Source of the DNA: an uncultured Gammaproteobacteria bacterium | Lineage (GTDB): Bacteria; Patescibacteriota; Patescibacteriia; UBA9934 | DNA length: 64,000 nucleotides | Assembly (NCBI GenBank): GCA_964552565.1 | Contig: CAZKGL010000001.1 | Span: 237,113-301,112, forward strand | Direction of reading: 5' to 3' | Shown: piece by piece, positions 1,385-59,849 of the stretch | Layout of the letters: every line of letters starts with the position of its first letter | Position numbering within the stretch: the first letter of the stretch is position 1 | Program-made: the position numbers and the translations under genes | Notes under the pieces: generated by a model | Database searches by the model: none | Seen by the model: the letters and a program-made list of their open reading frames with translations, nothing else | Told to the model about the DNA's origin: nothing

Positions 1385-1393
1385 CCTATTTCA

Positions 1394-1422
1394 TTGACAA
1401 AACGTCATTTTTGTGCTATATT
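1394..1422 (+). promoter_or_regulatory. Sigma70-like promoter TTGACA-17-TATATT with TGc extended -10
   Basis: ttcaTTGACAaaacgtcatttttgtgcTATATT. A near-identical module occurs downstream of tRNA-Glu at 51016-51044. Confidence 0.5.
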
Positions 1423-22593: not shown

Positions 22594-24714
22594 ATGAAAG
22601 AGTTCGTGCTCAGCGGTGCCGGGTTCGGCAGCCGGAAGATCGACTACGCCGCGGAGCTGAACGACGAGCAGCGCGAACCGGTCGTGCACGGTGACGGCGC
22701 GACCCTGGTGCTCGCCGGCGCGGGAAGCGGCAAGACGCGCGTCATCACGTACCGCGTCGCATGGCTCCTCGAGCAGGGCGTGCCGCCGGAGCGCATCCTG
22801 CTCCTCACGTTTACCAACAAGGCGGCGCGCGAAATGGTGAGCCGCGTCGAAGCGCTGCTTGGCGTCTATCCGCACGGGCTGTGGGCCGGCACATTTCACT
22901 CCATCGCCAACCGCATCTTGCGCATGTACGGCAGCCGCGAGGGCTTTGCGCCGAACTTTTCTATCCTCGACGAAGAGGACGCGGGCGACCTCATCAAGTT
23001 GTGCACGAAGCACCTGAAGATCGACACCGCGGGCAAGCGCTTCCCGAGTCCGAACGTGCTGAAGGGCGTCATCTCGTACCGCCGCAACGCCGCCATGTCG
23101 ATGGAAGACGTGCTCAGCCGCAAGCATCCGCACCTCTTGCCGATGCTCGCGGACATCGAACGCGTCGCGGACATGTACGAACGCCAAAAGGCGGAGCAGC
23201 AGGCGATGGACTTCGACGACTTGCTGACGGTGCTCTTGCGCCTGCTCCGCAACCATCCGGACGTGCGCGAAAAACTCGCGGACCAGTTTGCGTACATCCT
23301 CGTCGACGAGTTCCAGGACACGAACGTCATCCAGGCGGACATCGTCCACGCGCTGGCCGGGACGCACGGCAATATCCTCGCGGTCGGCGACGACGCGCAG
23401 AGCATCTACTCGTTCCGCGCCGCGGAGATCCGCAACATCCTCGACTTCCCGCGCCGCTACCCGGACGCGAAGGTGTTCCGTTTGGTGACGAATTACCGCT
23501 CAACGCCGCAGATCCTCGCTATCGCGAACAGCGTCATCGCGCACAACGAAAATCAGTTTGCAAAAGAACTCGTCGCCGCGGTGCACGACGGGGAGAGGCC
23601 GCAGCTCGTCCCTGCGAACTCCGCGTCGCAAGAGGCGCAGTTCGTCGTGGAACAGATCTGTGCGCTGCTTGACGAGGGCGCGGCGCCATCGTCCGTCGCC
23701 GTGCTGTTCCGCGCGGCATTCCACTCGCAACAAGTGGAATTCGAACTCATGAAGCGCGGTATTCCGTACGAGTACCGCGGCGGCATGAAGTTTTTCGAAC
23801 GCGCCCATGTCAAAGACGCGTTGGCGCATCTGCGCACCATCCATAACGTCAAAGACCTCATGGCGTGGAACCGCGCGCTGACGCTCCAGCCCGGACTCGG
23901 CCTCACGACCGCAAACAAGATCGCGACGACGCTCGCGCAGGCGGCGACGATCGACGAGGCGGTCGCATCGACGCCGGTGACGGCGCCCAAAGCACGGGCC
24001 GGATGGGAGGGGACGCAGCGTATGCTCCGCGCCATGCTCGCGGCACGGCCGTCGGTCGCCGACGTGCTCCGTGCGTTCGCCGCAAGCGACGACTACCGCG
24101 CGTATCTCGAAGGGGAATACCCGAACTGGCGCGAGCGCCTCGATGACGTCGAACAGCTCGCCGTGTTTGCGGAGCAGTACCAGGAACTCGGCGGGTTCCT
24201 CGACGCGGTGAGCTTGACCGCGGAATTCGGGGCGCGCATCGACGACCCGGCGCAACCTGAGGATGAAGCGGAAGGCGACGCGCTCGTGCTTTCAACGATC
24301 CACCAGGCCAAGGGGCTCGAGTGGGACACCGTCTTCATCATCAACCTTTCGGAGGGCGGGTTCCCGAGCGGACGCGCGCTCGACGAAGAGGGTGGGCTTG
24401 AAGAAGAGCGTCGGCTGTTCTATGTTGCCGCCACGCGCGCGCGGAAAAAACTCTTCCTCACATACCCCATCACTGCGGGCTACGAGCACGTGGAGCTCCG
24501 CCAGCCGTCGACGTTCCTCACGGAGATTCCCAAGCACGAGCTCGAAGAAGTGCGCTTGCGGTACGGCGGATCATGGCAAGCGACACAAGAACATCGCCGG
24601 GGTCCCCGCACCCCGGCATGGGACGACGAACCGACGATCGTGCTCGACGACGACGGCGAGCGCGTCACGAAGCCTGCGCCGAAATCATTCTTGCGTGATC
24701 TCGATGACCTGTAG
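22594..24714 (+). CDS. uvrD: ATP-dependent DNA helicase UvrD/PcrA family
   Basis: Walker A LAGAGSGKT, helicase motifs I-VI, 706 aa. A REP-like palindrome is embedded in-frame near the C-terminus (24596-24617). Confidence 0.9.
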   Translation: MKEFVLSGAGFGSRKIDYAAELNDEQREPVVHGDGATLVLAGAGSGKTRVITYRVAWLLEQGVPPERILLLTFTNKAAREMVSRVEALLGVYPHGLWAGTFHSIANRILRMYGSREGFAPNFSILDEEDAGDLIKLCTKHLKIDTAGKRFPSPNVLKGVISYRRNAAMSMEDVLSRKHPHLLPMLADIERVADMYERQKAEQQAMDFDDLLTVLLRLLRNHPDVREKLADQFAYILVDEFQDTNVIQADIVHALAGTHGNILAVGDDAQSIYSFRAAEIRNILDFPRRYPDAKVFRLVTNYRSTPQILAIANSVIAHNENQFAKELVAAVHDGERPQLVPANSASQEAQFVVEQICALLDEGAAPSSVAVLFRAAFHSQQVEFELMKRGIPYEYRGGMKFFERAHVKDALAHLRTIHNVKDLMAWNRALTLQPGLGLTTANKIATTLAQAATIDEAVASTPVTAPKARAGWEGTQRMLRAMLAARPSVADVLRAFAASDDYRAYLEGEYPNWRERLDDVEQLAVFAEQYQELGGFLDAVSLTAEFGARIDDPAQPEDEAEGDALVLSTIHQAKGLEWDTVFIINLSEGGFPSGRALDEEGGLEEERRLFYVAATRARKKLFLTYPITAGYEHVELRQPSTFLTEIPKHELEEVRLRYGGSWQATQEHRRGPRTPAWDDEPTIVLDDDGERVTKPAPKSFLRDLDDL

Positions 24715-40337: not shown

Positions 40338-43300
40338 ATGTCAGAAATCACAGCGCGCGTCGCCCCCCAGGCGGCGTCGGAAGGTCAGATTGCAGGTGCG
40401 GTTTGGCAGTTTATGACCTCGGTCAAAGAAGTGAAAAAACGCGACGGAGCAAGCCAGGCGTTTTCCGCTGACAAGCTTCGTGCGTCCGTCGAGAAGGCGC
40501 TCGCCGCAGCCGGGCAGAACAATGCCGACGCCTATGCCGGCCGCATCACGTCGCAGGTCGTGTCCCGCCTGACGCGCCAGTTTGACGGACACCGCGTTCC
40601 GACCACGTCGGAGATCCGCGAAGTCGTGTCCGTTGCCATCATCGACAACAACCTGATCCACGTCGCGAAGGCGTACATGGGGTTCAAGGCGCGGACGGAG
40701 GCTGCGGTGCCGGGCGAGAAGTACGGCAAGGGCCTTCCGTTCAGCCGCTACTTTACGAAGGACGGCGTGGCGCCGTACGCCATGCTCGAGTGGGAGAAGC
40801 GCAGCGCGGTCATCACGAACGAGAAGGGCAAGGTCGTGTTCGAACAGCACGACATCGAGGTTCCGAAGGGGTGGTCGCAGACCGCCACGAACATCGTCGC
40901 CCAGAAGTATTTCCGCGGGAAGGTCGGCACGCCGGAGCGCGAGACGTCCATGAAGCAGCTCATCGACCGCGTGGCCAAGACCATGGCGAACTGGGGCCGC
41001 AAGGACGGTTATTTCGCGACGAAAGAGGATGCGCAGGTTTTTGAAGATGAACTGACGTGGATTCTCATTAACCAGATGGCCGCGTTCAACAGCCCGGTCT
41101 GGTTCAATGTGGGCATTAATCCGCACCCGCAGTGTTCCGCGTGCTTCATCAACTCCGTGCAGGACGACATGCGTTCGATTTTGAACCTCGCGGTCACGGA
41201 AAGCATGCTCTTCAAGCAGGGCTCGGGCACGGGCAGCAACCTCTCCAAGCTCCGCTCGTCGCAGGAATACCTCGGCGGCAGCAACGGCAAGTCGTCCGGC
41301 CCCGTATCGTTCATGAAGGGCCTCGATGCCTTCGCGGGCATCGTCAAGAGCGGCGGCAAGACGCGCCGCGCGGCGAAGATGGTCATCTTGAACGTCGACC
41401 ATCCCGATGTCATGCAGTTCATCGAGTGCAAGGCGAAGGAGGAGCGGAAGGCCTGGACGCTGGTCGACGCCGGCTACGACAGCAGCATGGACGGCGAGGC
41501 GTACTCGAGTATTTTCTTCCAGAACGCGAACAACTCGGTGCGCGTGACGGATGGCTTCATGCGTGCGGTGGAGAAGGACGAGGAGTGGGTGACGAAGGAG
41601 ATTACGACCGGTAAGGATTCGCTGAAGTACAAGGCGCGCGACCTTTTCCGCGCCATGGCCGAGGCGGCGTGGCAGTGCGGCGACCCGGGCATCCAGTACG
41701 ACACGACCGTGAACCTCTGGCACACGAGCAAGAATACGGACCGCATCAACGCGTCGAACCCGTGCTCGGAATACATGTTCCTCGACGACACCGCCTGCAA
41801 CCTTTCGTCGCTCAACCTCATGAAGTTCCGCAAGGAAGCAAACGGCGTCATGGAGTTCGACGTGGAGGCGTTCACGAAGGCGTCGGAGGTCATGATTACC
41901 GCGATGGAGATCACGGTCGGCAACTCGAGCTACCCGACGCCGGCCATCGAGCAGAACAGCCACGACTTCCGCCCGCTCGGTATCGGCTACGCGAACTTGG
42001 GCGCGCTCCTCATGAGCCGGGGCCTTGCATACGACTCGGACGAGGGACGCAACCTCGCCGCCGCGATTACCGCGCTCCTTTCGGGCGCGACCTATGCGCA
42101 GTCGGCGCGCATCGCCGAGAAGATCGGCGCGTTCTCGGCCTTTGCCGTGAACCGCGAGCCGTGCATGGGCGTCATGGAGATGCACCGCCGCGCGTCCTAC
42201 GAGATGGCGCCCGCGGGCGTCCCGGCAGACCTCATGGCGGCGGCGAAGAAGAGCTGGGACGAGGTCGTCGACCGCGGCTACCAGCACGGGCTGCGTAACG
42301 CGCAGATTTCGGTCATCGCCCCGACCGGCACCATTTCGTTCCTCATGGATTGCGACACGACCGGCATCGAGCCGGACATCGCGCTCGTGAAGTACAAGTG
42401 GCTTGTGGGCGGCGGCATGCTGAAAATCGTGAACAATACCGTCCCGGAGGCGCTGACCCGCCTTGGCTACGGCGAGGCGGAGTGCAAGGATATCCTCGCC
42501 TACATCGACGAGAAGGACACCATTGAAGGCGCCCCGCACCTGAAGCCGGAGCACGTCGGCGTGTTTGACTGCGCGTTCAAGGCGAAGAACGGGACGCGCA
42601 CCATCCACCACATGGCGCACATCAACATGATGGCCGCGGTGCAGCCGTTCGTGTCCGGGGCCATCTCGAAGACGGTCAACATGCCGAACGAGGCGACGGT
42701 CGAAGATATCATGGACGTCTACATGAAGGGCTGGAAGCTCGGCTTGAAGGCGATCGCCATCTACCGCGACGGCAGCAAGCGCCAACAGGCACTTACCACG
42801 TCGAAAGAAAAAGACTCTGCGAAGGCGAATGCGAAAGAACTAGGCGGGGCCACCGCGCCCCGCCCGGAAGAGAAGAAGGATGAAACGGTCGCCGCGGCGA
42901 TCGAAACCGTAAAGGTGCAGGTGAACCCCGCAACCGCGTCGCGCCGCCGCCGCTTGCCGGACGAGCGCCGCGCCCTCACGCACAAGTTTGCGATCGGCAG
43001 CCACGAGGGCTATATCACCATCGGCCTCTACGACGACGGGACGCCGGGCGAGCTCTTCGTCACCATGTCGAAGGAAGGTTCGGTCATCAGCGGCCTCATG
43101 GATGCGTTCTCGACCAGCGTGTCGATTGGCCTGCAATACGGCGTGCCGCTCCACGTGCTCGTGAACAAGTTCGCGCACATGCGCTTTGAGCCGTCGGGCT
43201 TCACGAACAATCCCAACATCCGCATCGCGAAGTCCATCATCGACTACATCTTCCGCTACCTCGCCATGAAGTTCCTCCCGGTCGATGCACAGCTCCAGGT

Positions 43301-43601
43301 CGGCATCAACGTCGTCGAGACGCATGGCAATGACATAGGCGGGGTCACCGCGCCCCGCCAGGAAACGGTCGTGCAGCCGATCACCGACGCACAGCCGACG
43401 ATCTTCGCCTCACCGCTCGCGACCGACACGAACCCCGTCATGTCGCCGGGCACTGCGCCCGCGAAGACGACGCCCGGCCTCACGGCGACGTTCGACAACC
43501 AGTCGGACGCCCCGACGTGCGACACGTGCGGCAGCATGATGGTCCGCAACGCCGCGTGCTACAAGTGCCTGAATTGTGGGAGTACGAGTGGATGCAGTTA
43601 A
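40338..43601 (+). CDS. nrdJ: Ribonucleotide reductase class II (adenosylcobalamin-dependent), with N-terminal ATP cone and C-terminal zinc ribbon
   Basis: ATP cone, NPCSEY active-site motif, C-terminal CDTCGSMMVRNAACYKCLNC. Two REP-variant palindromes are embedded in-frame (42843-42864 and 43338-43359). Confidence 0.9.
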   Translation: MSEITARVAPQAASEGQIAGAVWQFMTSVKEVKKRDGASQAFSADKLRASVEKALAAAGQNNADAYAGRITSQVVSRLTRQFDGHRVPTTSEIREVVSVAIIDNNLIHVAKAYMGFKARTEAAVPGEKYGKGLPFSRYFTKDGVAPYAMLEWEKRSAVITNEKGKVVFEQHDIEVPKGWSQTATNIVAQKYFRGKVGTPERETSMKQLIDRVAKTMANWGRKDGYFATKEDAQVFEDELTWILINQMAAFNSPVWFNVGINPHPQCSACFINSVQDDMRSILNLAVTESMLFKQGSGTGSNLSKLRSSQEYLGGSNGKSSGPVSFMKGLDAFAGIVKSGGKTRRAAKMVILNVDHPDVMQFIECKAKEERKAWTLVDAGYDSSMDGEAYSSIFFQNANNSVRVTDGFMRAVEKDEEWVTKEITTGKDSLKYKARDLFRAMAEAAWQCGDPGIQYDTTVNLWHTSKNTDRINASNPCSEYMFLDDTACNLSSLNLMKFRKEANGVMEFDVEAFTKASEVMITAMEITVGNSSYPTPAIEQNSHDFRPLGIGYANLGALLMSRGLAYDSDEGRNLAAAITALLSGATYAQSARIAEKIGAFSAFAVNREPCMGVMEMHRRASYEMAPAGVPADLMAAAKKSWDEVVDRGYQHGLRNAQISVIAPTGTISFLMDCDTTGIEPDIALVKYKWLVGGGMLKIVNNTVPEALTRLGYGEAECKDILAYIDEKDTIEGAPHLKPEHVGVFDCAFKAKNGTRTIHHMAHINMMAAVQPFVSGAISKTVNMPNEATVEDIMDVYMKGWKLGLKAIAIYRDGSKRQQALTTSKEKDSAKANAKELGGATAPRPEEKKDETVAAAIETVKVQVNPATASRRRRLPDERRALTHKFAIGSHEGYITIGLYDDGTPGELFVTMSKEGSVISGLMDAFSTSVSIGLQYGVPLHVLVNKFAHMRFEPSGFTNNPNIRIAKSIIDYIFRYLAMKFLPVDAQLQVGINVVETHGNDIGGVTAPRQETVVQPITDAQPTIFASPLATDTNPVMSPGTAPAKTTPGLTATFDNQSDAPTCDTCGSMMVRNAACYKCLNCGSTSGCS

Positions 43602-43650: not shown

Positions 43651-44049
43651 ATGCGCCAAATCACCAAGCGTCTCCTACCAGGACAGGATCTTCGCGATGA
43701 AATCGAGAAGGTCGTCCATGACCATGATGTGAAAGCAGGAGTTCTGCTTTCCATCGTCGGATGTCTTACGTCCTTACGGCTTCGCGTCGCTGACGGGGTG
43801 ACGGTCAAGGAATGGAGCGAGAAGTTTGAAATCGTATCCGGCACCGGGACGGTATCGGTCAACGATAGCCACATCCATATCGCGGCCGCAAACCAGGAGG
43901 GCATGACGATTGGCGGGCATCTTAAACAGGGCTGCATCGTGGGAACGACGGTAGAGCTCGTGGTTCTTGCGTTCGATGACATTGCATATGTTCGCGAACC
44001 GGATGCTGCGACCGGATACGATGAGCTCGTTATCCGCGAAAAACCATAG
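43651..44049 (+). CDS. PPC/DUF296 domain protein (PD1-like DNA-binding)
   Basis: DUF296 fold pattern (IHIAAANQEGMTIGGHL...GTTVELVVLAFDD). The stop codon lies inside REP copy 2. Confidence 0.55.
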   Translation: MRQITKRLLPGQDLRDEIEKVVHDHDVKAGVLLSIVGCLTSLRLRVADGVTVKEWSEKFEIVSGTGTVSVNDSHIHIAAANQEGMTIGGHLKQGCIVGTTVELVVLAFDDIAYVREPDAATGYDELVIREKP

Positions 44050-44075
44050 ACGGGGGTCCCCGCACCCCGTCTATG
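44045..44075 (+). repeat. REP palindrome, copy 2
   Basis: catagacgggggtccccgcaccccgtctatg. Confidence 0.8.
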
Positions 44076-44082
44076 CTGTTCT

Positions 44083-44553
44083 ATGCGAACCTTTCGATGG
44101 CACGACGAACTGAAAAACGATAACGCGATTCATTTTGTTACTTCGGTGACGAAGGGGCGTACGCGGACTTTTGATGACGTGGCGCTCGCACTGTTACTGC
44201 TCGGAGAGATTCACGGATATGCGGAGAGATACTCGATGACGTTGTTTGCGTCGGTGGTCATGCCCGACCACTTCCATGCAATCCTTTGGCCGCAAGGGAA
44301 ACGGACTGTTCCGGAGTTTATGAAAGGGGTGAAGGGTTTTACCGCAAAGAAGGTCGCCGAGTATAGGCGGGGTGCGGGGACCCCGCCTATGGACGTGTGG
44401 CAAGACGAGTATTTTGATCACCTGATTACAGATGAGACTACGCTTGAAGAAAAGATTTGGTACATCATCCGCAATCCGATTGAGGACAACCTCATTGCCG
44501 AAGGCGGCGAGTACCCGTACCTTTTCGTCCAGCCCGATTACGATCCTCGCTAA
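44083..44553 (+). CDS. REP-associated tyrosine transposase (RAYT; IS200/IS605-like Y1 HUH transposase)
   Basis: HUH motif PDHFHAIL and C-terminal WQDEYFDHLI matching the RAYT WQxxY(F/W)DH motif. It contains an in-frame inverted REP copy (44363-44392) and is flanked by REPs. Confidence 0.75.
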   Translation: MRTFRWHDELKNDNAIHFVTSVTKGRTRTFDDVALALLLLGEIHGYAERYSMTLFASVVMPDHFHAILWPQGKRTVPEFMKGVKGFTAKKVAEYRRGAGTPPMDVWQDEYFDHLITDETTLEEKIWYIIRNPIEDNLIAEGGEYPYLFVQPDYDPR

Positions 44554-44579
44554 AGGCGGGGTGCGGGACCCCGCCTATG
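44552..44579 (-). repeat. REP palindrome, copy 4 (inverted), spanning the RAYT stop and the ATG of the next gene
   Basis: aaaggcggggtgcgggaccccgcctATGa. Confidence 0.7.
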
Positions 44580-45176
44580 AAAAAGAACGAACAGCCGGTT
44601 CTCGACGAACGCATCAAAGGCTTCCAAGGTTACGGCTTGGTGCAGCTCATCCATGGCACGGGGAAGGGGAAGACGACCGCTGCGCTCGGGCAGGCTATCC
44701 GGTGCGTGGGTTCCGGCCGGCGCGTCTGCATCGTCTACTTCGACAAAGGCGGAACGACGCACTACAGCGAACGGAAGGTGCTCGATGCGCTGGATGGCAT
44801 CGACTATGTCGCGTCCGGTCGTGACCGCATCGACCCGGTGACGGGACGATTTGATTTTTCGATCACCGACGAGGACAAGGCCGAGGCGGCGCGGGGGCTT
44901 GCTGCGGCGCGCGATGCATTGGCGGGCGACCACGAGGGTCGCCCCTACGATCTCGTTATTCTCGATGAGATCAATTCCACCGTCGCGCTCGGCATGCTTG
45001 GCGAGCAGGATGTGCTCGATGTGCTCGCGAAGAAGCGTCCGGACGTCGAAGTCATCCTCACGGGACGCAATCCGCCCCAGGCGTTCATCGACGCCGCACA
45101 TCTTGTCACCGAAATGACACTGCAGCGTCACTACTTCTATTCCGGCGTGAAGGCGCGGGAGGGGCTTGACTACTAG
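44577..45176 (+). CDS. Cob(I)yrinic acid a,c-diamide / cob(I)alamin adenosyltransferase (CobA/CobO/BtuR type)
   Basis: P-loop HGTGKGKTTAALG, conserved DE and TGR motifs. About 200 aa, typical of this family. Confidence 0.8.
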   Translation: MKKNEQPVLDERIKGFQGYGLVQLIHGTGKGKTTAALGQAIRCVGSGRRVCIVYFDKGGTTHYSERKVLDALDGIDYVASGRDRIDPVTGRFDFSITDEDKAEAARGLAAARDALAGDHEGRPYDLVILDEINSTVALGMLGEQDVLDVLAKKRPDVEVILTGRNPPQAFIDAAHLVTEMTLQRHYFYSGVKAREGLDY

Positions 45177-47689: not shown

Positions 47690-47699
47690 AAAAGAACGC

Positions 47700-47727
47700 G
47701 CCGCCCGGTAGAGCCGGGCGGCGAGGT
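47700..47727 (-). terminator. Intrinsic terminator of glmS (minus strand)
   Basis: GCGCCGCCCGG-tagag-CCGGGCGGCG with a T-run on the minus strand (plus-strand aaaaagaac). Confidence 0.5.
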
Positions 47728-47849
47728 GTTGGCGCACATGCGGTTGCCGGGAAGGAGCAGCTGTGCACAGGGCCCGAGCGTGCTTATCCGGATTGTGCCC
47801 ACGTACGCCAACCCCCTATCTTCCACGTCCAGATTCTCCTGTCAAGGGT

Positions 47850-49778: not shown

Positions 49779-50552
49779 TTACGCGGCCTCTTTGTCAAAC
49801 CACGCTTTTTCTTGAGGTTCAAAGTCCTTTGTTTCGTCGAGTGGCATCATTGCGGCCGCATCAAGCGCCGCCGCGCCCCGTACCTCGCGCTTCGGCTGTT
49901 CGAAGAGCGCTGCTGCCACCGCGCCGACCGGGGAGGTGGTTACGAGTTTTGACCGCATCTGGAGGGCTTCGTTGCGGGAACGGAGGTTTGCGAGCTGCGC
50001 GTCGATGTCGCGGATGCGCCCCCAGTGGAACGGGTTCCAAAGTTTCAGCTTGCTGCGTTCTTCCTGCATGCGCCCAATCTGACTCTGGATGCGCGTTGTG
50101 TCTTTGCGGATTTTTTCGCGTTCGCGTTCGACCCGCAATCGCTTGGAAAGATGGCTCTCGTCGCCGTAGGGCGTCGCCGCCGACGGGGCGAGCTCTTTGT
50201 CGAGCGCCATCTGCTTCATGCGAAGGAACGCGAGCTCCTTCATCTCCTCGTCGCTCAGGTCTTCCTGATCCTTTTCGAGCTTCTTGATCTTCTTGTCGAG
50301 CGCTTTGCGGTAGGTGTCAATAGAAAAATTCGCAAGCTCGCGGTGCACCTCGTGGCGCGCCTCCGCGAGATCGATGTCGCGATTGACGGCGGCGGTGTCG
50401 GCGAAATGTTGCCGCTGCTCGAATTCGTCGAGCGCCTTGAGCTCCGGCGTCAACTCCACCGCGCCGCGACGGTGCACATCCGTCGCGCGGACGCCGCGTT
50501 CTGTGCGCGTCGTTTCGCGCTCAATCCTCCCTTCGCGCAGGAACTCGTTCAT
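49779..50552 (-). CDS. Hypothetical coiled-coil protein
   Basis: Start MNEFLREG. A TGCTATACT extended -10 lies only 9 nt upstream of the ATG (leaderless-type). Confidence 0.5.
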   Translation of the reverse strand: MNEFLREGRIERETTRTERGVRATDVHRRGAVELTPELKALDEFEQRQHFADTAAVNRDIDLAEARHEVHRELANFSIDTYRKALDKKIKKLEKDQEDLSDEEMKELAFLRMKQMALDKELAPSAATPYGDESHLSKRLRVEREREKIRKDTTRIQSQIGRMQEERSKLKLWNPFHWGRIRDIDAQLANLRSRNEALQMRSKLVTTSPVGAVAAALFEQPKREVRGAAALDAAAMMPLDETKDFEPQEKAWFDKEAA

Positions 50553-50576: not shown

Positions 50577-50618
50577 GAACTGAAAACGCACCCGAGGGCA
50601 GTGCGCCTTCAGGGTGCG
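50577..50618 (-). terminator. Terminator repeat, copy A (42 nt identical to 53106-53147 in inverted orientation)
   Basis: aactgaaaacgcacccgagggcagtgcgccttcagggtgcgt. On the minus strand it reads ACGCACCC...GGGTGCGTTTTCAGTT, immediately after the stop of the 50641 gene. Confidence 0.6.
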
Positions 50619-50640
50619 TGCGTCGCAACCGGACGTTCGT

Positions 50641-50991
50641 CTAGCCCTCCTCGGCCAGCTTCTTCAGGATCTCGCGGACCTGGCCGTCAGTCCTGAAGTT
50701 GGTGTGGAACATGTCGCCGCTGTCGATGACGACGTAGTAGGACATGAGCCCCTCGATGACGCGCGGGTTGTCGTCCTTGATGGACTCCCAGCCCTGCGGG
50801 GTCTGGATGAGCGTCGACTCGCCCTGGTCGTTGAAGAGGTTGCCATCGAGGCGCCAGCGCGCGACCTCCTGATCGACGATCATGACGAGCACGCAGAGCG
50901 CCGCGGGCGCGCCGGCGAGGATTGCGACAGTGTTGACGATGTCTGCGATCGACATCTTCTGCCGCGGCGAGGCGGAACGGGAAATGGACAT
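50641..50991 (-). CDS. Small hypothetical membrane-anchored protein
   Basis: Start MSISRSASP. Hydrophobic segment IVNTVAILAGAPAALCVLVMIV. GGAG RBS. Confidence 0.45.
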   Translation of the reverse strand: MSISRSASPRQKMSIADIVNTVAILAGAPAALCVLVMIVDQEVARWRLDGNLFNDQGESTLIQTPQGWESIKDDNPRVIEGLMSYYVVIDSGDMFHTNFRTDGQVREILKKLAEEG

Positions 50992-51015
50992 GTAAAGGCT
51001 CCGGGTTGCAGGAGA

Positions 51016-51044
51016 ACTGTAGCATAAAAATGGTGTTTTGTCAA
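51016..51044 (-). promoter_or_regulatory. Promoter TTGACA-17-TACAGT (minus strand), near-identical to the one after tRNA-Gln
   Basis: Minus-strand ttcaTTGACAaaacaccatttttatgcTACAGT, to be compared with 1394-1422. Confidence 0.45.
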
Positions 51045-51060
51045 TGAAATTTCCATAAAT

Positions 51061-51103
51061 TCTGCAAAACAAAAGCGCCCTCGGCCGAAGCCGATGGCGC
51101 TTT
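51061..51103 (-). terminator. Bidirectional terminator hairpin following tRNA-Glu
   Basis: GCGCCCTCGGC-cgaa-GCCGATGGCGC flanked by A-run and T-run. Confidence 0.45.
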
Positions 51104-51178
51104 TGGTGACCCTACGGGGATTCGAACCCCGATTTGATCCGTGAGAGGGATCCGTCCTAGCCCTTAGACGATAGGGCC
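51104..51178 (-). tRNA. tRNA-Glu (anticodon CTC), CCA encoded
   Basis: Hand-folded: acceptor GGCCCTA/TAGGGTC (one G-U pair), T-arm CGGGGTTCGAATCCCCG, anticodon stem GATCC/GGATC with loop CTCTCAC. Confidence 0.7.
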
Positions 51179-51209
51179 GCACTTTTGCGGCGGAATCATA
51201 ACAAAATGA

Positions 51210-51593
51210 TCACCGCCCGTCAACGATCGGGTCTCCGGTTTCCGGAGTCCGCCACCCACGGCTGATTTCTTCGTGCTCGAGCGCATCGTCGTCCCAGCCG
51301 AGATGATGGCCGATTTCGTGCCAGAGCGTGCGGCGGATTTCTTCACGAATTGCCTCAGGATCGTCGCCGCATTCGTTTTCGATGGCGCGTTGGTAGATGG
51401 CGATTTTGTCCGGCAGCATGCCGGTCGGGTCGCCGATTCGGTCCACGCGCGGCGTGCCGAAATACTCGCCAAGCGGCCCGTCGTCCGTCCCCGGTTCCGC
51501 GCAGAACGCCACGTTATCGAGCGCGGAAAGCACATCGGGAGGTAGTTCATTTACTGCGCGTTCAACTTCGGCAAGGAATGCGTCGGGGGACAT
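51210..51593 (-). CDS. Small zinc metallopeptidase family protein (Zincin_1 / DUF1025-like)
   Basis: HExxH motif in LWHEIGHHLG. About 127 aa from MSPDAFLAEVERAV. Confidence 0.55.
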   Translation of the reverse strand: MSPDAFLAEVERAVNELPPDVLSALDNVAFCAEPGTDDGPLGEYFGTPRVDRIGDPTGMLPDKIAIYQRAIENECGDDPEAIREEIRRTLWHEIGHHLGWDDDALEHEEISRGWRTPETGDPIVDGR

Positions 51594-51636
51594 AGTAAGA
51601 CTATTTTTCCGAATTCGGATGAAAAGGGAAAGAGAC

Positions 51637-51665
51637 TTGCAAAAAGTGCAAAAACTTGCTAGTAT
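51637..51665 (+). promoter_or_regulatory. Promoter TTGCAA-17-TAGTAT for the B12-rSAM gene
   Basis: cTTGCAAaaagtgcaaaaacttgcTAGTAT. Confidence 0.4.
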
Positions 51666-51727
51666 TCGGACAGTTCTTTGGGACGAGAGTCCCGTTTTTC
51701 GTATCAACCCAAACCATAGGAGGCGAC

Positions 51728-53095
51728 ATGAAGGTCGTCCTGGTCCAGCCTCGCTCCCCATGGGGCAAGCAACCGTACCTCCCGAACGGCCTCCTCATGG
51801 TGGCCGCGCAGCTCATGTCCGTGGGCGTCAAGGTCGTCATCCTCGACGAGAACCTCGGCGACCGCATCGACGCGCTCGGCATGTGCGAGCACTTCGCGGA
51901 TGCGGACGCCATCGGCATCGGCGCGCTCGGCGCGCCGTACGTCCCGGAGGCGATCCGCGTGGCGGAGCGGCTGCGCAACCGTTACGGCACCCCGATCTTC
52001 GTGGGCGGTGAGGTCATCAACAACCTCGCGCCGGCGCAGTTCGTCCGCATGTTCGGCCACGTCGGGAGCATCGTGCAGATCAACGGCGACGCCGTGCTCG
52101 GCGAGAAGCTCGGGCTGGCGCTGCCGTCGATGTACGACACCTCGATGGCGCCGGCGATCGCCGCGCTTCCCGAGCGCGCCAAGGAGGCCTACTTCCGCAA
52201 GGAGTGGTGCCTCTTCACCTCGCAGGGCTGCATCTTCAACTGCAACTTCTGCGCGGCGGCGAAGGACCGGCGCGAGCGTTTCCGCGACCTGGATGCCTTC
52301 CGCGACGAGGTCACGTACCTCGCGCAGATGGTGCGGCGCTACGCCGGCCGCACGCCGCGGTACGAGGTGTACTGCTCCACGCTCGACGGGTGTCAAAACC
52401 CGGACGAGATGGAGCAGACGCTCGCGACCGTCACGGAAGTCTGCGCCGATGTCGACGTGTTCTTCCCGTTGCGGTTCCTCGCGACGGCGACGTGCACGGC
52501 GCGGGCGGTCCGCAAGGACCCGGACGTACTCCGGCGCTGGGGCGGCTACGGGCTCGGGTGCATCGGCATCGGCGTCGACGGCAACGACCCCGCGGTGTGG
52601 GCTCGCGAGAACAAGCGGCACAACACCGAGTCGGTCATCGCCGAGGCGCTCGCGCAGATCGCCCGTGCCGGGATCCAGCCCGAGGCCTTCATGGTCATGG
52701 GACTCCCCGGGGATGACATCGACGCGGTGGCCCGCGGCATGCGTGCGTGCTTCCGCTTCGCGGCGGAAGGCATCCGTCCCCGGCCGTACCTCGGCAAAGG
52801 GCATGCGCCGGGATCGGTGGGCTGGAAGGCGGGTGGGGCGGTCGTGGACGAGTTCCTGGAGCGCCCCGAGCGCCTGCTCGAGCTCGACTACGGCGGCCTC
52901 GCGTCGCCGGCCACCCACCCGGAGAGCCGCGCGAAGCGCTGGGCCGCGAACGCCGCGTTCCTCGCGACGTGCTACGGCCTCAAGCTCACCGAGGTCGGGT
53001 GCCCGACCCAGCCGCTGTTCCCGACCGAGAGCGTGTCGTTGCCCTGGCGCATGTTTGGCCGCGTAGCGAACCGCTTCGCCGGGCAGGACCGATAG
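51728..53095 (+). CDS. Cobalamin (B12)-binding domain radical SAM protein (class B radical SAM)
   Basis: N-terminal B12-binding Rossmann-like domain (MKVVLVQPRSPW...) and radical SAM CxxxCxxC (SQGCIFNCNFCAA). GGAGG RBS. Confidence 0.7.
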   Translation: MKVVLVQPRSPWGKQPYLPNGLLMVAAQLMSVGVKVVILDENLGDRIDALGMCEHFADADAIGIGALGAPYVPEAIRVAERLRNRYGTPIFVGGEVINNLAPAQFVRMFGHVGSIVQINGDAVLGEKLGLALPSMYDTSMAPAIAALPERAKEAYFRKEWCLFTSQGCIFNCNFCAAAKDRRERFRDLDAFRDEVTYLAQMVRRYAGRTPRYEVYCSTLDGCQNPDEMEQTLATVTEVCADVDVFFPLRFLATATCTARAVRKDPDVLRRWGGYGLGCIGIGVDGNDPAVWARENKRHNTESVIAEALAQIARAGIQPEAFMVMGLPGDDIDAVARGMRACFRFAAEGIRPRPYLGKGHAPGSVGWKAGGAVVDEFLERPERLLELDYGGLASPATHPESRAKRWAANAAFLATCYGLKLTEVGCPTQPLFPTESVSLPWRMFGRVANRFAGQDR

Positions 53096-53105
53096 GACAA
53101 TCCGT

Positions 53106-53147
53106 GACGCACCCTGAAGGCGCACTGCCCTCGGGTGCGTTTTCAGT
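53106..53147 (+). terminator. Terminator repeat, copy B (inverted duplicate of 50577-50618)
   Basis: ACGCACCCtgaaggcgcactgccctcGGGTGCGTTTTCAGTT directly after the rSAM stop. Confidence 0.6.
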
Positions 53148-53258
53148 TTCCACTGAGCCAATAAGGCCCCGATCGGCCCGTTATTGGATACGAGGCTCTC
53201 CACAAAAGAAGAACCGCCCGACGAAGCGCCGGGCGGTGCTTCATCGGACGGGAGGAGT

Positions 53259-53783
53259 TCAGCTCGCGCGCAGGAGGCCGGGGCGGGTGATGCCGTCGGT
53301 CGCGTGGCGGACGGCGTTCAGCTCGGCGATGATCTGCGAGGTCATCCAGCGGCGGCCGTCGACCATCAGGCGTTCGAGGACCGCGGGAACCTCCGCGGGG
53401 ATCGAGTTCGCGAAGAGCTCGTGCCAGCTCGAGTGCCAGCCTCGCGGCAGCACGACGATGTTTCCATCGCGGGTGCCGCCTCGCGAATCGGGCCGGATGT
53501 GGTGGTCCGTCGGCTTCGTGTCGAGTCCCTCGCTGCACGTGATGCGACGACGGATGACGCGCTGGCCGACGCCCGCCACCGCGTAGCGCGCTTCGAGCAG
53601 GCGCGCCACGTCCCATTTCTTGCCAGGGGTCATCACCTCCGTGACGTATGGCATGACGAGAGAGAGGGGGAGATCGCCGAAGACGCGAGCCCATTCGAGT
53701 GCGAACCGGGGCGGAACCCACATGACGAGGGTATCCTGGTCATCGGCGGTGCGGGAGATGGCGAACTTTTCGAAATCCTGCAA
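53259..53783 (-). CDS. Hypothetical protein with HNH-nuclease-like motif
   Basis: DHHIRPDSRGGTRDGNIVVLPRGWHSSWHELF resembles HNH (H-H...N...H) but lacks the Cys zinc ligands. Confidence 0.35.
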   Translation of the reverse strand: MQDFEKFAISRTADDQDTLVMWVPPRFALEWARVFGDLPLSLVMPYVTEVMTPGKKWDVARLLEARYAVAGVGQRVIRRRITCSEGLDTKPTDHHIRPDSRGGTRDGNIVVLPRGWHSSWHELFANSIPAEVPAVLERLMVDGRRWMTSQIIAELNAVRHATDGITRPGLLRAS

Positions 53784-56852: not shown

Positions 56853-57350
56853 ATGACGGATGAACAGCACAACACAATAGACGGGGTCCCCGCACCCCGT
56901 CCGAGCGATGACCTCCAAGCGAAGTGCGACGAGTATCTCGCCGGATGGAAACGCGCGCTGGCCGACTACGAAAACTTGCAAAAGCATAACGCACAGGAAC
57001 GCGAGAACGACCGACGCCGCATCCGCACGAACCTCGCGCTCGACCTCCTGCCCGTCGTCGACAACTTCGACCAGGCGCTCAAGTTCGCTCCGAAGGACGT
57101 CGATGCGAACTGGTTCGCCGGCGTCGCGCACATCGCGCGGCAGTTCGCGGAGGCGCTCAAGAACATGGGCATCGAACCCATCGAGTCCGTCGGCCATGTC
57201 TTTGACCCGAACCTCCACGAGAGCGGCGGGTCGCGCTGGGAGGACGACACGCCGGAGGGCGTGGTCATCGAAGAAGTCATCCGCGGATGGAAGATGGGCG
57301 ATATGGTCATCCGTCCTGCAAAAGTCATCGTGAACCAAAAATCCGAATAA
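56853..57350 (+). CDS. grpE: Nucleotide exchange factor GrpE
   Basis: GrpE coiled coil and C-terminal beta domain. A REP palindrome (56887-56913) is embedded in-frame near the N-terminus ([12 protein letters not shown]). Confidence 0.9.
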
Positions 57351-59252: not shown

Positions 59253-59849
59253 ATGCGCAAATTAAGTAGTGAGACAAAGATGGGCCAGGTTCTAGAAACC
59301 GCAAATTATATCTCACGCTTAATTTCTCAGATAGAACAGGGGGATCTTGATGCGGCAAGAAGTCTTGCGACAAACGTCTCGAAAGTTCTTCTTAAGGACA
59401 AGTATGCCAGGACATCACGCCTGTCCGACCTTGCAACCGAAGTTGGTGTCCCGTTGAACGTTTTCTTCAAGCCACCCGTCGATACCGTGCAAAAACTTGC
59501 AAGGATTGGGATCCCGGCCCCTACGATTGTGTACGAAGGAGAAACGTTCTCGTGTGAGCCCACTGAACCGTGGCAGGTCCAGACTTCCCTTGAAGAATTC
59601 CTGGGTTCGCGTTGCTTCTGGATTAAAGGAACAGAGATTTCATTCGAAACGGTTCTGAAGACTGTGCGAGATAAGTTGGATGCGCACTTAGACGACGCAC
59701 TACCCGATGAGTACATTCTTATGCAGGGGGTCGGCATCGGAGGTGCGCAAGGTTACGGGAGGCCTATCTACGCCCTGGGTAAATTGACCCTTGAGTTAAT
59801 CGATGTGGTGTATGGAGGATGGAAGATGCGCTACGGCGAGCTTCGATAG
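59253..59849 (+). CDS. Hypothetical protein encoded in a low-GC (about 50%) segment inserted after dnaK
   Basis: ORF of 198 aa. Its nucleotide composition is clearly lower in GC than the flanking sequence. Alternative start at 59280. Confidence 0.5.
   Translation: MRKLSSETKMGQVLETANYISRLISQIEQGDLDAARSLATNVSKVLLKDKYARTSRLSDLATEVGVPLNVFFKPPVDTVQKLARIGIPAPTIVYEGETFSCEPTEPWQVQTSLEEFLGSRCFWIKGTEISFETVLKTVRDKLDAHLDDALPDEYILMQGVGIGGAQGYGRPIYALGKLTLELIDVVYGGWKMRYGELR

Follow-up and report, generated by a model that had tools for sequence, protein, structure and literature searches.

The window analysed here, that is, the whole stretch of 64,000 nucleotides from an 839-kb genome, contains a 42-nt inverted repeat whose arms are 100 % complementary and lie 2487 nt apart (50578-50619 and 53107-53148). 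These arms are probably two copies of one Rho-independent terminator, and the block that they bracket is probably neither mobile nor acquired, its radical SAM (rSAM) gene being native to the host. An earlier note on this DNA had reported identical 42-nt sequences in opposite orientation, which was borne out with coordinates shifted by 1 nt (those given had been 1 nt low). The gene content listed there for the bracketed block, namely a small membrane protein, tRNA-Glu(CTC), a Zincin with an HExxH motif and a 455-aa rSAM protein, was confirmed as well, and all gene models equal the database gene calls. The features of the block and its flanks are as follows:

49779-50552, minus strand: left flank, 257-aa lineage-specific coiled-coil-like protein (hyp257), upstream of glmS
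50578-50619, minus strand: left 42-nt copy, predicted intrinsic terminator of the small membrane-protein gene
50641-50991, minus strand: 116-aa protein with one N-terminal hydrophobic segment and no family match (small membrane protein)
51016-51044, minus strand: sigma-70-like promoter of the small membrane-protein gene, TTGACA-17-TACAGT with TG, found by scan
51060-51105, minus strand: tRNA-Glu's own terminator, hairpin and U-tract (-27 kcal/mol, z = -5.0)
51104-51178, minus strand: tRNA-Glu(CTC)
51195-51223, minus strand: sigma-70-like promoter of tRNA-Glu, TTGACG-17-TATGAT, found by scan and conserved in relatives
51210-51593, minus strand: 127-aa Zincin_1 (PF06262) protein with HEIGH motif
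51637-51665, plus strand: putative rSAM promoter, TTGCAA-17-TAGTAT with upstream TG, found by eye and below the scan threshold
51728-53095, plus strand: 455-aa radical SAM protein (profile match, structure model)
53107-53148, plus strand: right 42-nt copy, predicted intrinsic terminator of the rSAM gene
53213-53783, minus strand: right flank, 174-aa ORF with its own terminator (53213-53237)

Within the 64 kb covered, the repeat is restricted to these two sites; further copies may exist elsewhere in the 839-kb genome. A search allowing up to 3 mismatches returned the two copies only (dinucleotide shuffles of the 64-kb window expect 0.00), blastn-short detected no diverged copies in the window, and the 42-mer was the sole repeat of at least 24 nt there with 100 % identity. 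The identity between copies stops sharply at both ends and the flanks are unrelated. Three independent Logan unitigs (SRR12113420, k = 31) were 100 % identical to the window and ended inside the repeat copies, each exactly 30 nt (k-1) into a 42-mer: at 53136 (L001) and 53119 (L016), which enter the right copy from either side, and at 50607 (L017) for the left copy. The 42-nt repeat is thus present in the raw reads and is no artefact of assembly. The hairpin pattern ACGCACCC N4 GGC N5 GCC N3 GGGTGCGT gave 0 matches across 185,579 species genomes. Its sole match in JGI metagenomes (L011) was attributed to chance, as it falls within a GC-rich coding region and is devoid of a U-tail. The earlier note had considered that the 42-mer might prove to be a common terminator used at many loci; neither the window nor the public collections point to such a family.

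Read on the minus strand, the left copy consists of ACGCACCC-U-GAAGGC-GCACU-GCCCUC-GGGUGCGU followed by UUUUCAGUU. It folds into an 8-bp outer stem and a 6-bp inner stem that enclose a 5-nt loop and are interrupted by a single bulge and a single A-C mismatch, so that the module comprises a 34-nt bulged hairpin and then UUUUCAGUU, which lies directly 3' of the stem on the coding strand in both copies. The minimum free energy was -27.8 kcal/mol in the right-hand context (z = -3.0), and in the left-hand context the fold was no better than shuffles (z = -0.5). The U-tract is short and interrupted (4 U, then CAGUU), like those of other terminators of the locus. As for position, the right copy starts 11 nt past the rSAM stop codon on the plus strand, the small membrane-protein stop codon stands 21 nt ahead of the left copy on the minus strand, and 8 nt separate the end of the left copy from the extended -10 (TGCTATACT) of hyp257-glmS, a promoter that is conserved in relative L012. 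Its bulge and mismatch caused the hairpin to be missed by a simple terminator scan. The features expected of an intrinsic terminator, a stable GC-rich stem-loop, a 3' U-tract and a location past a stop codon, are nevertheless all present. Because hairpin and U-tail follow the stops of the outward-facing genes by 11-21 nt, the 42-mer is most likely a duplicated intrinsic terminator, and the suggestion that the repeats serve as terminators for these genes is thereby upheld by hairpin, U-tail and position alike.

Each of the four genes of the block has its own promoter-like site. A near-identical 31-mer to the promoter of the small membrane-protein gene follows tRNA-Gln at 1388-1418. A terminator-like hairpin in the rSAM 5' leader (51679-51699) was discarded as no better than shuffles (z = -1.0), and the recurrence at 59487 of the promoter-like 25-mer of rSAM was considered coincidental, that site being within coding sequence. 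On the left, hyp257 is the first gene of a conserved syntenic block, and a single homologue was found, on a 1.4-kb contig. On the right, the 174-aa ORF belongs to the variable interval described below but is not enclosed by the repeats, and relatives lack it. Its assignment as an HNH nuclease, based on a motif seen by eye, was abandoned: Pfam (E up to 10), NCBIfam, PHROGs and PDB sequences gave no support, and a single-sequence AF2 model was unusable (pLDDT 36.6).

Comparison with related genomes placed the block in a rearrangement hotspot of this Patescibacteria lineage, the interval between glmS and the gene of a CPA2 transporter. L012-L014 retain both surrounding blocks, RNR-CobA-PBP-glmS and CPA2-HrcA-GrpE, with proteins 63-82 % identical, and the gene content of the interval differs in each genome compared. 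The rSAM, Zincin, small membrane-protein and 174-aa genes are all missing from it in L012-L014, a pattern that an insertion would also give. tRNA-Glu(CTC) is present wherever the interval is covered (L012 and L013), in the opposite orientation relative to glmS in L012 and in the same one as in the window in L013. It is orthologous to these tRNAs and to the rSAM-adjacent one of L018 and L019, and it is ancestral at the glmS-CPA2 locus. A 26-nt inverted repeat around tRNA-Glu in L012 was dismissed as a chance match, one of its arms lying in lysine codons of the hyp257 orthologue. In L018 and L019, whose rSAM is the second-closest relative (62 % protein identity), the divergent tRNA-Glu/rSAM pair recurs, the Zincin_1 gene is absent from the corresponding position, and in L018 the 3' end of tRNA-Glu(CTC) is directly adjoined by a large serine recombinase gene. 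Sequence downstream of rSAM differs in every relative, and the 42-mer is conserved in none of them.

The rSAM gene has a GC3 of 0.94 and a CAI of 0.77, the second of 31 genes; the CAI was 0.75 for the small membrane-protein gene, 0.67 for the 174-aa ORF and 0.56 for the Zincin gene (window range 0.54-0.79), and 0.45 for the foreign RAYT and PCC genes. The high GC content of rSAM (0.70, the 99th percentile of the window) is explained by this GC3 with host-preferred codons. The genes between 47.8 and 56.1 kb were all free of resolvase and integrase domains in Pfam scans, and tblastn probes for large serine recombinases, Hin and XerD returned nothing real in the 64 kb: a XerD-like match at 20.4-20.5 kb was a shadow frame of an endonuclease-III-like gene, and a serine recombinase match at 51040-51141 merely reflected tRNA overlap. 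A search of the window with 18-mers from the tRNA and its flanks, allowing up to 2 mismatches, gave no second occurrence such as an att-type repeat would produce, and no transposase, target-site duplication or tRNA fragment was found at the block.

Taken as a duplicated terminator, the repeat would act as follows. The left copy would end the small membrane-protein transcript on the minus strand and the right copy the rSAM transcript on the plus strand, and both would insulate the four independently promoted genes from hyp257-glmS on the left and from the convergent gene on the right. The glmS-CPA2 interval, anchored by tRNA-Glu(CTC), has been remodelled repeatedly in the lineage, and in a relative the tRNA serves as an integration site for mobile elements. 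During one such rearrangement the terminator may have been copied through short-patch conversion or illegitimate recombination, and both copies would have been kept because both work. The perfect identity of the arms could equally stem from ongoing recombination between them.

An alternative is that the population contains both orientations of the 2.5-kb tRNA-Glu/rSAM segment, the 42-bp inverted repeats being recombined by RecA or by a recombinase encoded elsewhere; since each arm carries a terminator, both orientations would stay properly terminated. Besides the identity of the arms, this would agree with the varying orientation of tRNA-Glu relative to glmS among relatives, with a left arm flush with the synteny breakpoint, and with a geometry reminiscent of the phage Mu G segment, which spans about 3 kb between inverted repeats of 34 bp. 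Like the G segment with Gin, or hin of Salmonella, the locus consists of a few kb of DNA between perfect inverted repeats some tens of bp long. Unlike them, it has no adjacent invertase (Pfam scans and tblastn probes detected none, either within 5 kb or in the rest of the window) and no switched promoter or gene ends, its repeats being terminator hairpins outside coding regions. Every promoter would keep its own gene after inversion, which leaves no evident phase-variable output. A length of 42 bp is close to the minimum for homologous recombination, and the flipped tRNA of relatives is without a comparable bracketing repeat, that of L012 being the chance match into coding sequence mentioned above. 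We therefore regard an invertible segment as unlikely. An acquired cassette, with the repeats as terminal repeats of an element that brought rSAM and its neighbours into the tRNA-Glu locus, seems very improbable, and the possibility of an acquired segment, raised in the earlier note, found no support. The absence of the rSAM, Zincin_1, small membrane-protein and 174-aa genes from the interval of L012-L014, the use of the tRNA as an integration site in L018 and the GC content of rSAM would all fit acquisition, and the locus shares with tRNA integration hotspots of serine or tyrosine recombinases its variable genes at a conserved tRNA-Glu(CTC) and a recombinase in a relative. It differs from them in that the window is devoid of an integrase and of an att duplication of the tRNA end, and in that its genes are compositionally native: rSAM uses host-preferred codons, unlike the foreign RAYT and PCC genes. 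Moreover, the tRNA inside the supposed cassette is the orthologous chromosomal one, its adjacency to rSAM is shared with L018 and L019 and hence old, neither transposase nor target-site duplication accompanies the block, and the repeats are oriented as terminators of the inside genes rather than as element ends.

Two further explanations concern the hairpin itself. The 42-mer might represent another REP- or MITE-like family of this genome, spread in the way the resident RAYT spreads its REPs, with two copies lying 2.5 kb apart by chance. This RAYT (NF047646, 97 bits) is flanked by inverted REP hairpins, and at least eight REP copies in the window indicate that hairpin dispersal is active in this genome; REP elements, moreover, often occupy terminator-like positions, and the 42-mer resembles REP/REPIN sequences with a RAYT in being a short, imperfectly palindromic intergenic hairpin in such a position. 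It has no sequence similarity to the REP of this RAYT, however, and its two copies do not form tight doublets. Neither of these copies has diverged and no others occur in 64 kb, whereas variants of the REP family are 66-93 % identical, and the genuine pattern is absent from the 185,579 species genomes and the JGI metagenomes. Dispersal of this kind consequently appears to be an improbable origin. Alternatively, the hairpin may be a shared mRNA 3' end through which one RNA-binding factor or sRNA regulates both the small membrane-protein and the rSAM gene, with identity maintained by selection. Both transcripts would indeed carry the same, and not a complementary, 42-nt 3' end, and the identity extends over loop, bulge and 8-nt tail. 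Against this, which we consider quite unlikely, the hairpin matches no Rfam family and is not conserved in relatives, and the two genes do not co-occur elsewhere.

A genuine REP/RAYT system is located 6 kb away from the 42-mer in the same window, and some REP copies lie in frame inside essential genes. A limited literature search found no report of REP/RAYT in Patescibacteria/CPR; its presence here means that even reduced genomes can host hairpin-repeat replicators.

The rSAM protein matched PF04055 with 41.3 bits (cutoff 29.5) and carries a Cx3Cx2C motif at C168, C172 and C175 that is invariant in 32 homologues. Its N-terminal domain is a B12-binding-like Rossmann fold, the domain by which class B is recognised, with a Pfam B12 match below threshold, and its C-terminal domain contains invariant THP and GCPTQPL motifs as well as an invariant D284-G285. 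In the AF2 model (pLDDT 94), the best fold matches were AprD4, MgmA, TsrM and CysS. AprD4, the top match, is cobalamin-free and the next matches are cobalamin methylases. Identity to the class B structures AprD4 (6fd2), MgmA (9ccb), TsrM (6wte), CysS (9n1b), TokK and OxsB was 12-17 %, and the protein differs from known class B enzymes by its own invariant motifs and by having neither a biosynthetic gene cluster nor an MCR context. Against the named NCBIfam class B subfamilies (TIGR04013, HpnR, PhpK, rSAM_ladder_B12, BchE and MgmA/TIGR04014), it scored 14.8-26.9 bits versus cutoffs of 251-650, in each case less than 15 % of the cutoff, and 10 distant family members were likewise below the named-family cutoffs. 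No SPASM match (PF13186) was found, one invariant Cys (C425) being C-terminal to the core, and the protein has neither the N-terminal three-Cys auxiliary cluster nor the TRAM domain of MiaB/RimO. A B12-domain-type fold with no SPASM domain, named family or conserved pathway context agrees with the orphan B12-binding rSAM described in the earlier note, and the protein did not turn out to belong to a well-known housekeeping family.

The host encodes a B12-type class II RNR and a CobA/BtuR adenosyltransferase, which implies that corrinoids are available, and cobalamin dependence is plausible. Most likely, the enzyme would modify its substrate with a [4Fe-4S] cluster, SAM and perhaps cobalamin. 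The clade comprises about 160 clusters at 50 % identity, its identified members are all Patescibacteria, and no literature on the family was found. A TrmB-family gene occurred within 5 kb of rSAM in 6 of 12 loci and was directly divergent in 4; in relatives, such a divergent TrmB-type regulator would usually control rSAM. N-terminal extensions of distant family members yielded no domains, just signal-anchor or TM-like segments. Proximity to a tRNA was also set aside as a functional clue, since a tRNA within about 3.5 kb, seen in about half of the loci, is not clearly above expectation for small genomes. The protein thus belongs to an uncharacterised clade of class B type, centred on Patescibacteria and kept in genomes of 0.6-0.9 Mb. 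Tentatively, this clade may perform a reaction not yet described, usually under a regulator of TrmB (sugar-sensing) type. The reaction might be methylation with cobalamin, or dehydration without it as in AprD4, the substrate being a sugar or a cell-envelope precursor that these symbionts scavenge.

The 42-mer itself is a small curiosity; it would show that exact copies of a module the size of a terminator can arise at a tRNA locus prone to rearrangement. As for the enzyme, Patescibacteria have very few enzymes, so that a radical SAM protein shared by several of their classes merits biochemical work: this rSAM is codon-adapted, is paired with a regulator in relatives and fits no known family.

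The perfect inverted repeat has its arms at 50578-50619 and 53107-53148, with 2487 nt between them in the 64-kb window; the earlier note had described these identical 42-nt copies correctly, with coordinates one base too low. As to further occurrences, a point raised in the same note, only these two copies were found in the 64 kb at up to three mismatches, while dinucleotide-preserving shuffles expect none. Short-word blastn revealed no diverged copies in the window, which held no other 100 % identical repeat of 24 nt or more. Identity stopped abruptly at both ends of the 42-mer and the flanks of the two copies were unrelated. An independent check was performed with k=31 unitigs from a separate assembly of run SRR12113420. 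Three of them were 100 % identical to the window and each ended exactly 30 nt (k-1) into an arm: L001 entered the right arm from inside (end at 53136), L016 entered it from outside (53119) and L017 entered the left arm from outside (50607). A true repeat that exceeds k in length should behave in this way, and the 42-mer is no long-contig artefact. Since such unitigs halt inside the arms, the orientation of the segment cannot be told from the SRR12113420 assemblies. The hairpin pattern was absent from 185,579 species-representative genomes; its sole match in JGI metagenomes was rejected as a chance hit.

On the strand of the preceding gene, the 42-mer reads ACGCACCC-U-GAAGGC-GCACU-GCCCUC-GGGUGCGU, then UUUUCAGUU. 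It forms a 14-bp hairpin that contains a bulge, and a U-rich tail follows; the fold has -27.8 kcal/mol and z = -3.0 in the right-hand context. The block is organized as follows, the five gene models all agreeing with database gene calls (5/5).

Features of the block
50578-50619 (-): left 42-mer copy, starting 21 nt past the stop codon of the 116-aa protein gene
50641-50991 (-): gene for a 116-aa single-TM protein (small-TM), with its own promoter TTGACA-17-TACAGT
51104-51178 (-): tRNA-Glu(CTC), served by a promoter-like site and a strong terminator hairpin of its own
between the arms: gene for a 127-aa Zincin_1 protein with a HEIGH motif
51728-53095 (+): gene for the 455-aa radical SAM (rSAM) protein, with a promoter TTGCAA-17-TAGTAT and an upstream TG, assigned by eye
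53107-53148 (+): right 42-mer copy, starting 11 nt past the stop codon of the rSAM gene

Hairpin, U-rich tail and position shortly after the stop codons of both outward genes uphold the proposal that the 42-mer copies are intrinsic terminators, an assignment inferred from structure and position. The block would thus consist of four separate transcription units, of which the two outermost transcripts share one 3'-end hairpin. A gap of 8 nt separates the left arm from the extended -10 (TGCTATACT) that precedes a gene for a 257-aa coiled-coil-like protein and then glmS; this promoter is conserved in the relative L012. To the right lies a convergent 174-aa ORF (53259-53783, -) with a separate terminator of its own. 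A stretch of this ORF, DHHIRPDSRGG...N...H, resembles an HNH nuclease motif; no match was found in Pfam, NCBIfam, PHROGs or PDB sequences, and its structure model was unusable (pLDDT 37). A 31-nt promoter-like sequence (ATTTCATTGACAAAAC..CATTTTT.TGCTA) was also observed at 1388-1418 (+) and 51020-51050 (-), the copies being 90 % identical and each lying about 50 nt 3' of a tRNA gene (tRNA-Gln and tRNA-Glu, respectively), from where it drives the next gene.

GlmS homologues placed the organism, whose contig is 838,942 bp long, in Patescibacteria (Uhrbacteria-like), and three relatives with GlmS 74-76 % identical (L012-L014) served as the syntenic comparison set. The flanks were common to all (class II RNR, CobA, DUF4178, PBP and glmS on one side, CPA2, HrcA and GrpE on the other; 63-82 % protein identity with the window), and the gene content of the glmS-to-CPA2 interval differed genome by genome. 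The three relatives lacked the rSAM, Zincin_1, small-TM and 174-aa genes in this interval, and the genes that they carry there were not found in the window. The constant was tRNA-Glu(CTC) with its promoter and terminator, and nothing else; relative to glmS, the tRNA is oriented in L013 as in the window and oppositely in L012. Two further contigs (L018/L019), carrying the second-closest rSAM homologue (62 % identity), have tRNA-Glu(CTC) directly upstream of and divergent from the rSAM gene, which is the layout of the window without the Zincin gene. In L018, the 3' end of tRNA-Glu(CTC) (1408-1482, -) is abutted and overlapped by the gene for a large serine recombinase (24-1448, +) with Resolvase, Recombinase and Zn-ribbon domains, an arrangement that indicates a mobile element integrated into the tRNA gene; the rSAM gene is on the opposite side of the tRNA. 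The variable interval, the flipped tRNA and the abutting recombinase show that tRNA-Glu(CTC) anchors a repeatedly rearranged hotspot, a target of mobile elements. Judged from these layouts, the tRNA-rSAM pairing is old, and it is found on the tRNA side away from the integration site. Between PBP and glmS (regions compared: L012 11909-13939, L013 11824-13119, L014 3725-5014), the relatives carry a Mur ligase gene, which in L012 is joined by a 198-aa gene; a DUF2207 gene lies near CobA in both L012 and L014. The PBP-glmS gap is only 160 nt in the window (47690-47849), and none of the L012 copies of these genes could be matched to any part of the 64 kb.

The suggestion that the segment was acquired did not withstand analysis. 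The GC content of the rSAM gene (0.70, 99th percentile of the window) is high because its GC3 of 0.94 results from codons preferred by the host, and its codon-adaptation index (CAI) of 0.77 was the second highest among 31 genes. Values typical of the window were also obtained for the small-TM gene (0.75) and the 174-aa ORF (0.67); the foreign RAYT and PCC-domain genes had a CAI of 0.45 and a GC content of 0.52-0.54. Genes from 47.8 to 56.1 kb contained no recombinase or transposase domains, tblastn with serine integrase, Hin and XerD queries gave nothing real anywhere in the window, and no fragment of tRNA-Glu(CTC) recurred as an att-type repeat. The block is not an acquired or mobile cassette.

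A complete REP/RAYT system was observed at 44046-44579. Its 156-aa REP-associated tyrosine transposase (gene at 44083-44553, +; NCBIfam NF047646, 97 bits versus a cutoff of 80; HUH motif PDHFHAI) has inverted copies of the hairpin ATAGACGGGGTCCCCGCACCCCGTCTAT on either side; the hairpin occurs at least eight times in the window. Foreign composition marks both the RAYT gene and its PCC-domain neighbor (43651-44049), and the syntenic relatives lacked the two genes. A limited literature search found no paper discussing RAYT/REPIN systems in Patescibacteria. Five hairpin copies sit in frame within protein-coding genes and encode a G-V/A-P/T-A-P-R-like peptide (frames read by eye); they may have been inserted and tolerated, or the peptide motif may have arisen by convergence.

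Further REP copies
24599-24614: in frame in the ORF 22594-24714
42846-42861 and 43341-43356: in frame in the class II RNR gene
43618: further copy
44369-44384: in frame within the RAYT gene itself
56883-56898: in frame in the GrpE N-terminus

Regarding the origin of the terminator pair, we favor, with moderate confidence, a rearrangement at the tRNA-Glu locus that would have duplicated one terminator module, both copies then persisting as useful insulators. Perfect arms and the flipped tRNA of L012 would also fit a 2.5-kb segment that is currently invertible, but no invertase was found and regulation would be unaffected by an inversion, making this unlikely. The resident REP/RAYT system lends some plausibility to the 42-mer being a second dispersed hairpin family; however, a family of two identical copies, unrelated to the resident REP, is a doubtful one. 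That the hairpin common to both outer transcripts is a shared 3'-end regulatory RNA element is quite improbable, and an acquired island, given the host-like codon usage, is highly improbable.

The 455-aa enzyme was an orphan in the earlier note and remained so upon profile search. Its one match above threshold was to the generic Radical_SAM model (41 bits); it stayed below threshold with the B12-binding model (27.9 versus 32.1 bits), reached none of the named NCBIfam class B families (15-27 bits versus cutoffs of 251-650) and lacks a SPASM domain. Searched by word index, 5.8 billion clusters yielded 33 full-length relatives at 41-64 % identity, and an exhaustive profile search retrieved 159 cluster representatives at E < 1e-30; ten distant members likewise fitted no named family. 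Identifiable sources were Patescibacteria (Uhrbacteria, Saccharibacteria, Gracilibacteria and an unclassified group), with the exception of one MAG labelled Gammaproteobacteria. Invariant positions were CX3CX2C (C168/C172/C175), D284-G285, E319, R352, K357, T396-H397 and C425, the latter within a GCPTQPL motif. The AlphaFold model built from the family alignment was of high confidence (pLDDT 94, pTM 0.92) and had MgmA (23.3), TsrM (23.1) and CysS (21.9) among its best structural matches, followed by RimO (20.1) and MiaB (17.8), all best matches being at 12-17 % identity. Its N-terminal domain aligned with the MetH cobalamin domain over SxL-like and GG motifs. Because of the likeness to AprD4, which is not known to bind cobalamin, cobalamin dependence should not be assumed. 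Corrinoids are available to the organism, as the window contains genes for a class II ribonucleotide reductase that depends on B12 (40338-43601; ATP-cone and TSCPD domains) and for a corrinoid adenosyltransferase of the CobA/BtuR type (44577-45176), indicating that this reduced genome salvages and uses cobalamin.

Comparison of neighborhoods over 12 loci showed that context is not conserved across the family, with one exception: a TrmB-family gene (~250 aa) lies within 5 kb of the rSAM gene in six of them, directly divergent from it in four loci of at least two independent lineages. The window has no TrmB homologue.

TrmB-family genes at rSAM loci of relatives
L002 506-1258
L005 5049-5816
L007 2417-3190
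L008 6976-7778, apparently split into two ORFs
L009 6235-7020
L010 6402-7198, apparently split into two ORFs

The split ORFs may reflect frameshifts or assembly errors. The TrmB partner, the similarity to AprD4 and the membrane-anchor extensions carried by some distant members lead us to guess at a sugar or envelope precursor as substrate.

We take the 455-aa protein to be native and probably well expressed, and to belong to a class-B-type clade that is uncharacterised. Nothing categorically new is at hand in a probably duplicated terminator within a tRNA-anchored hotspot and a new, uncharacterised radical SAM protein of the superfamily with B12 domains. The interest lies mainly in the enzyme family and secondarily in the REP/RAYT system 6 kb away.
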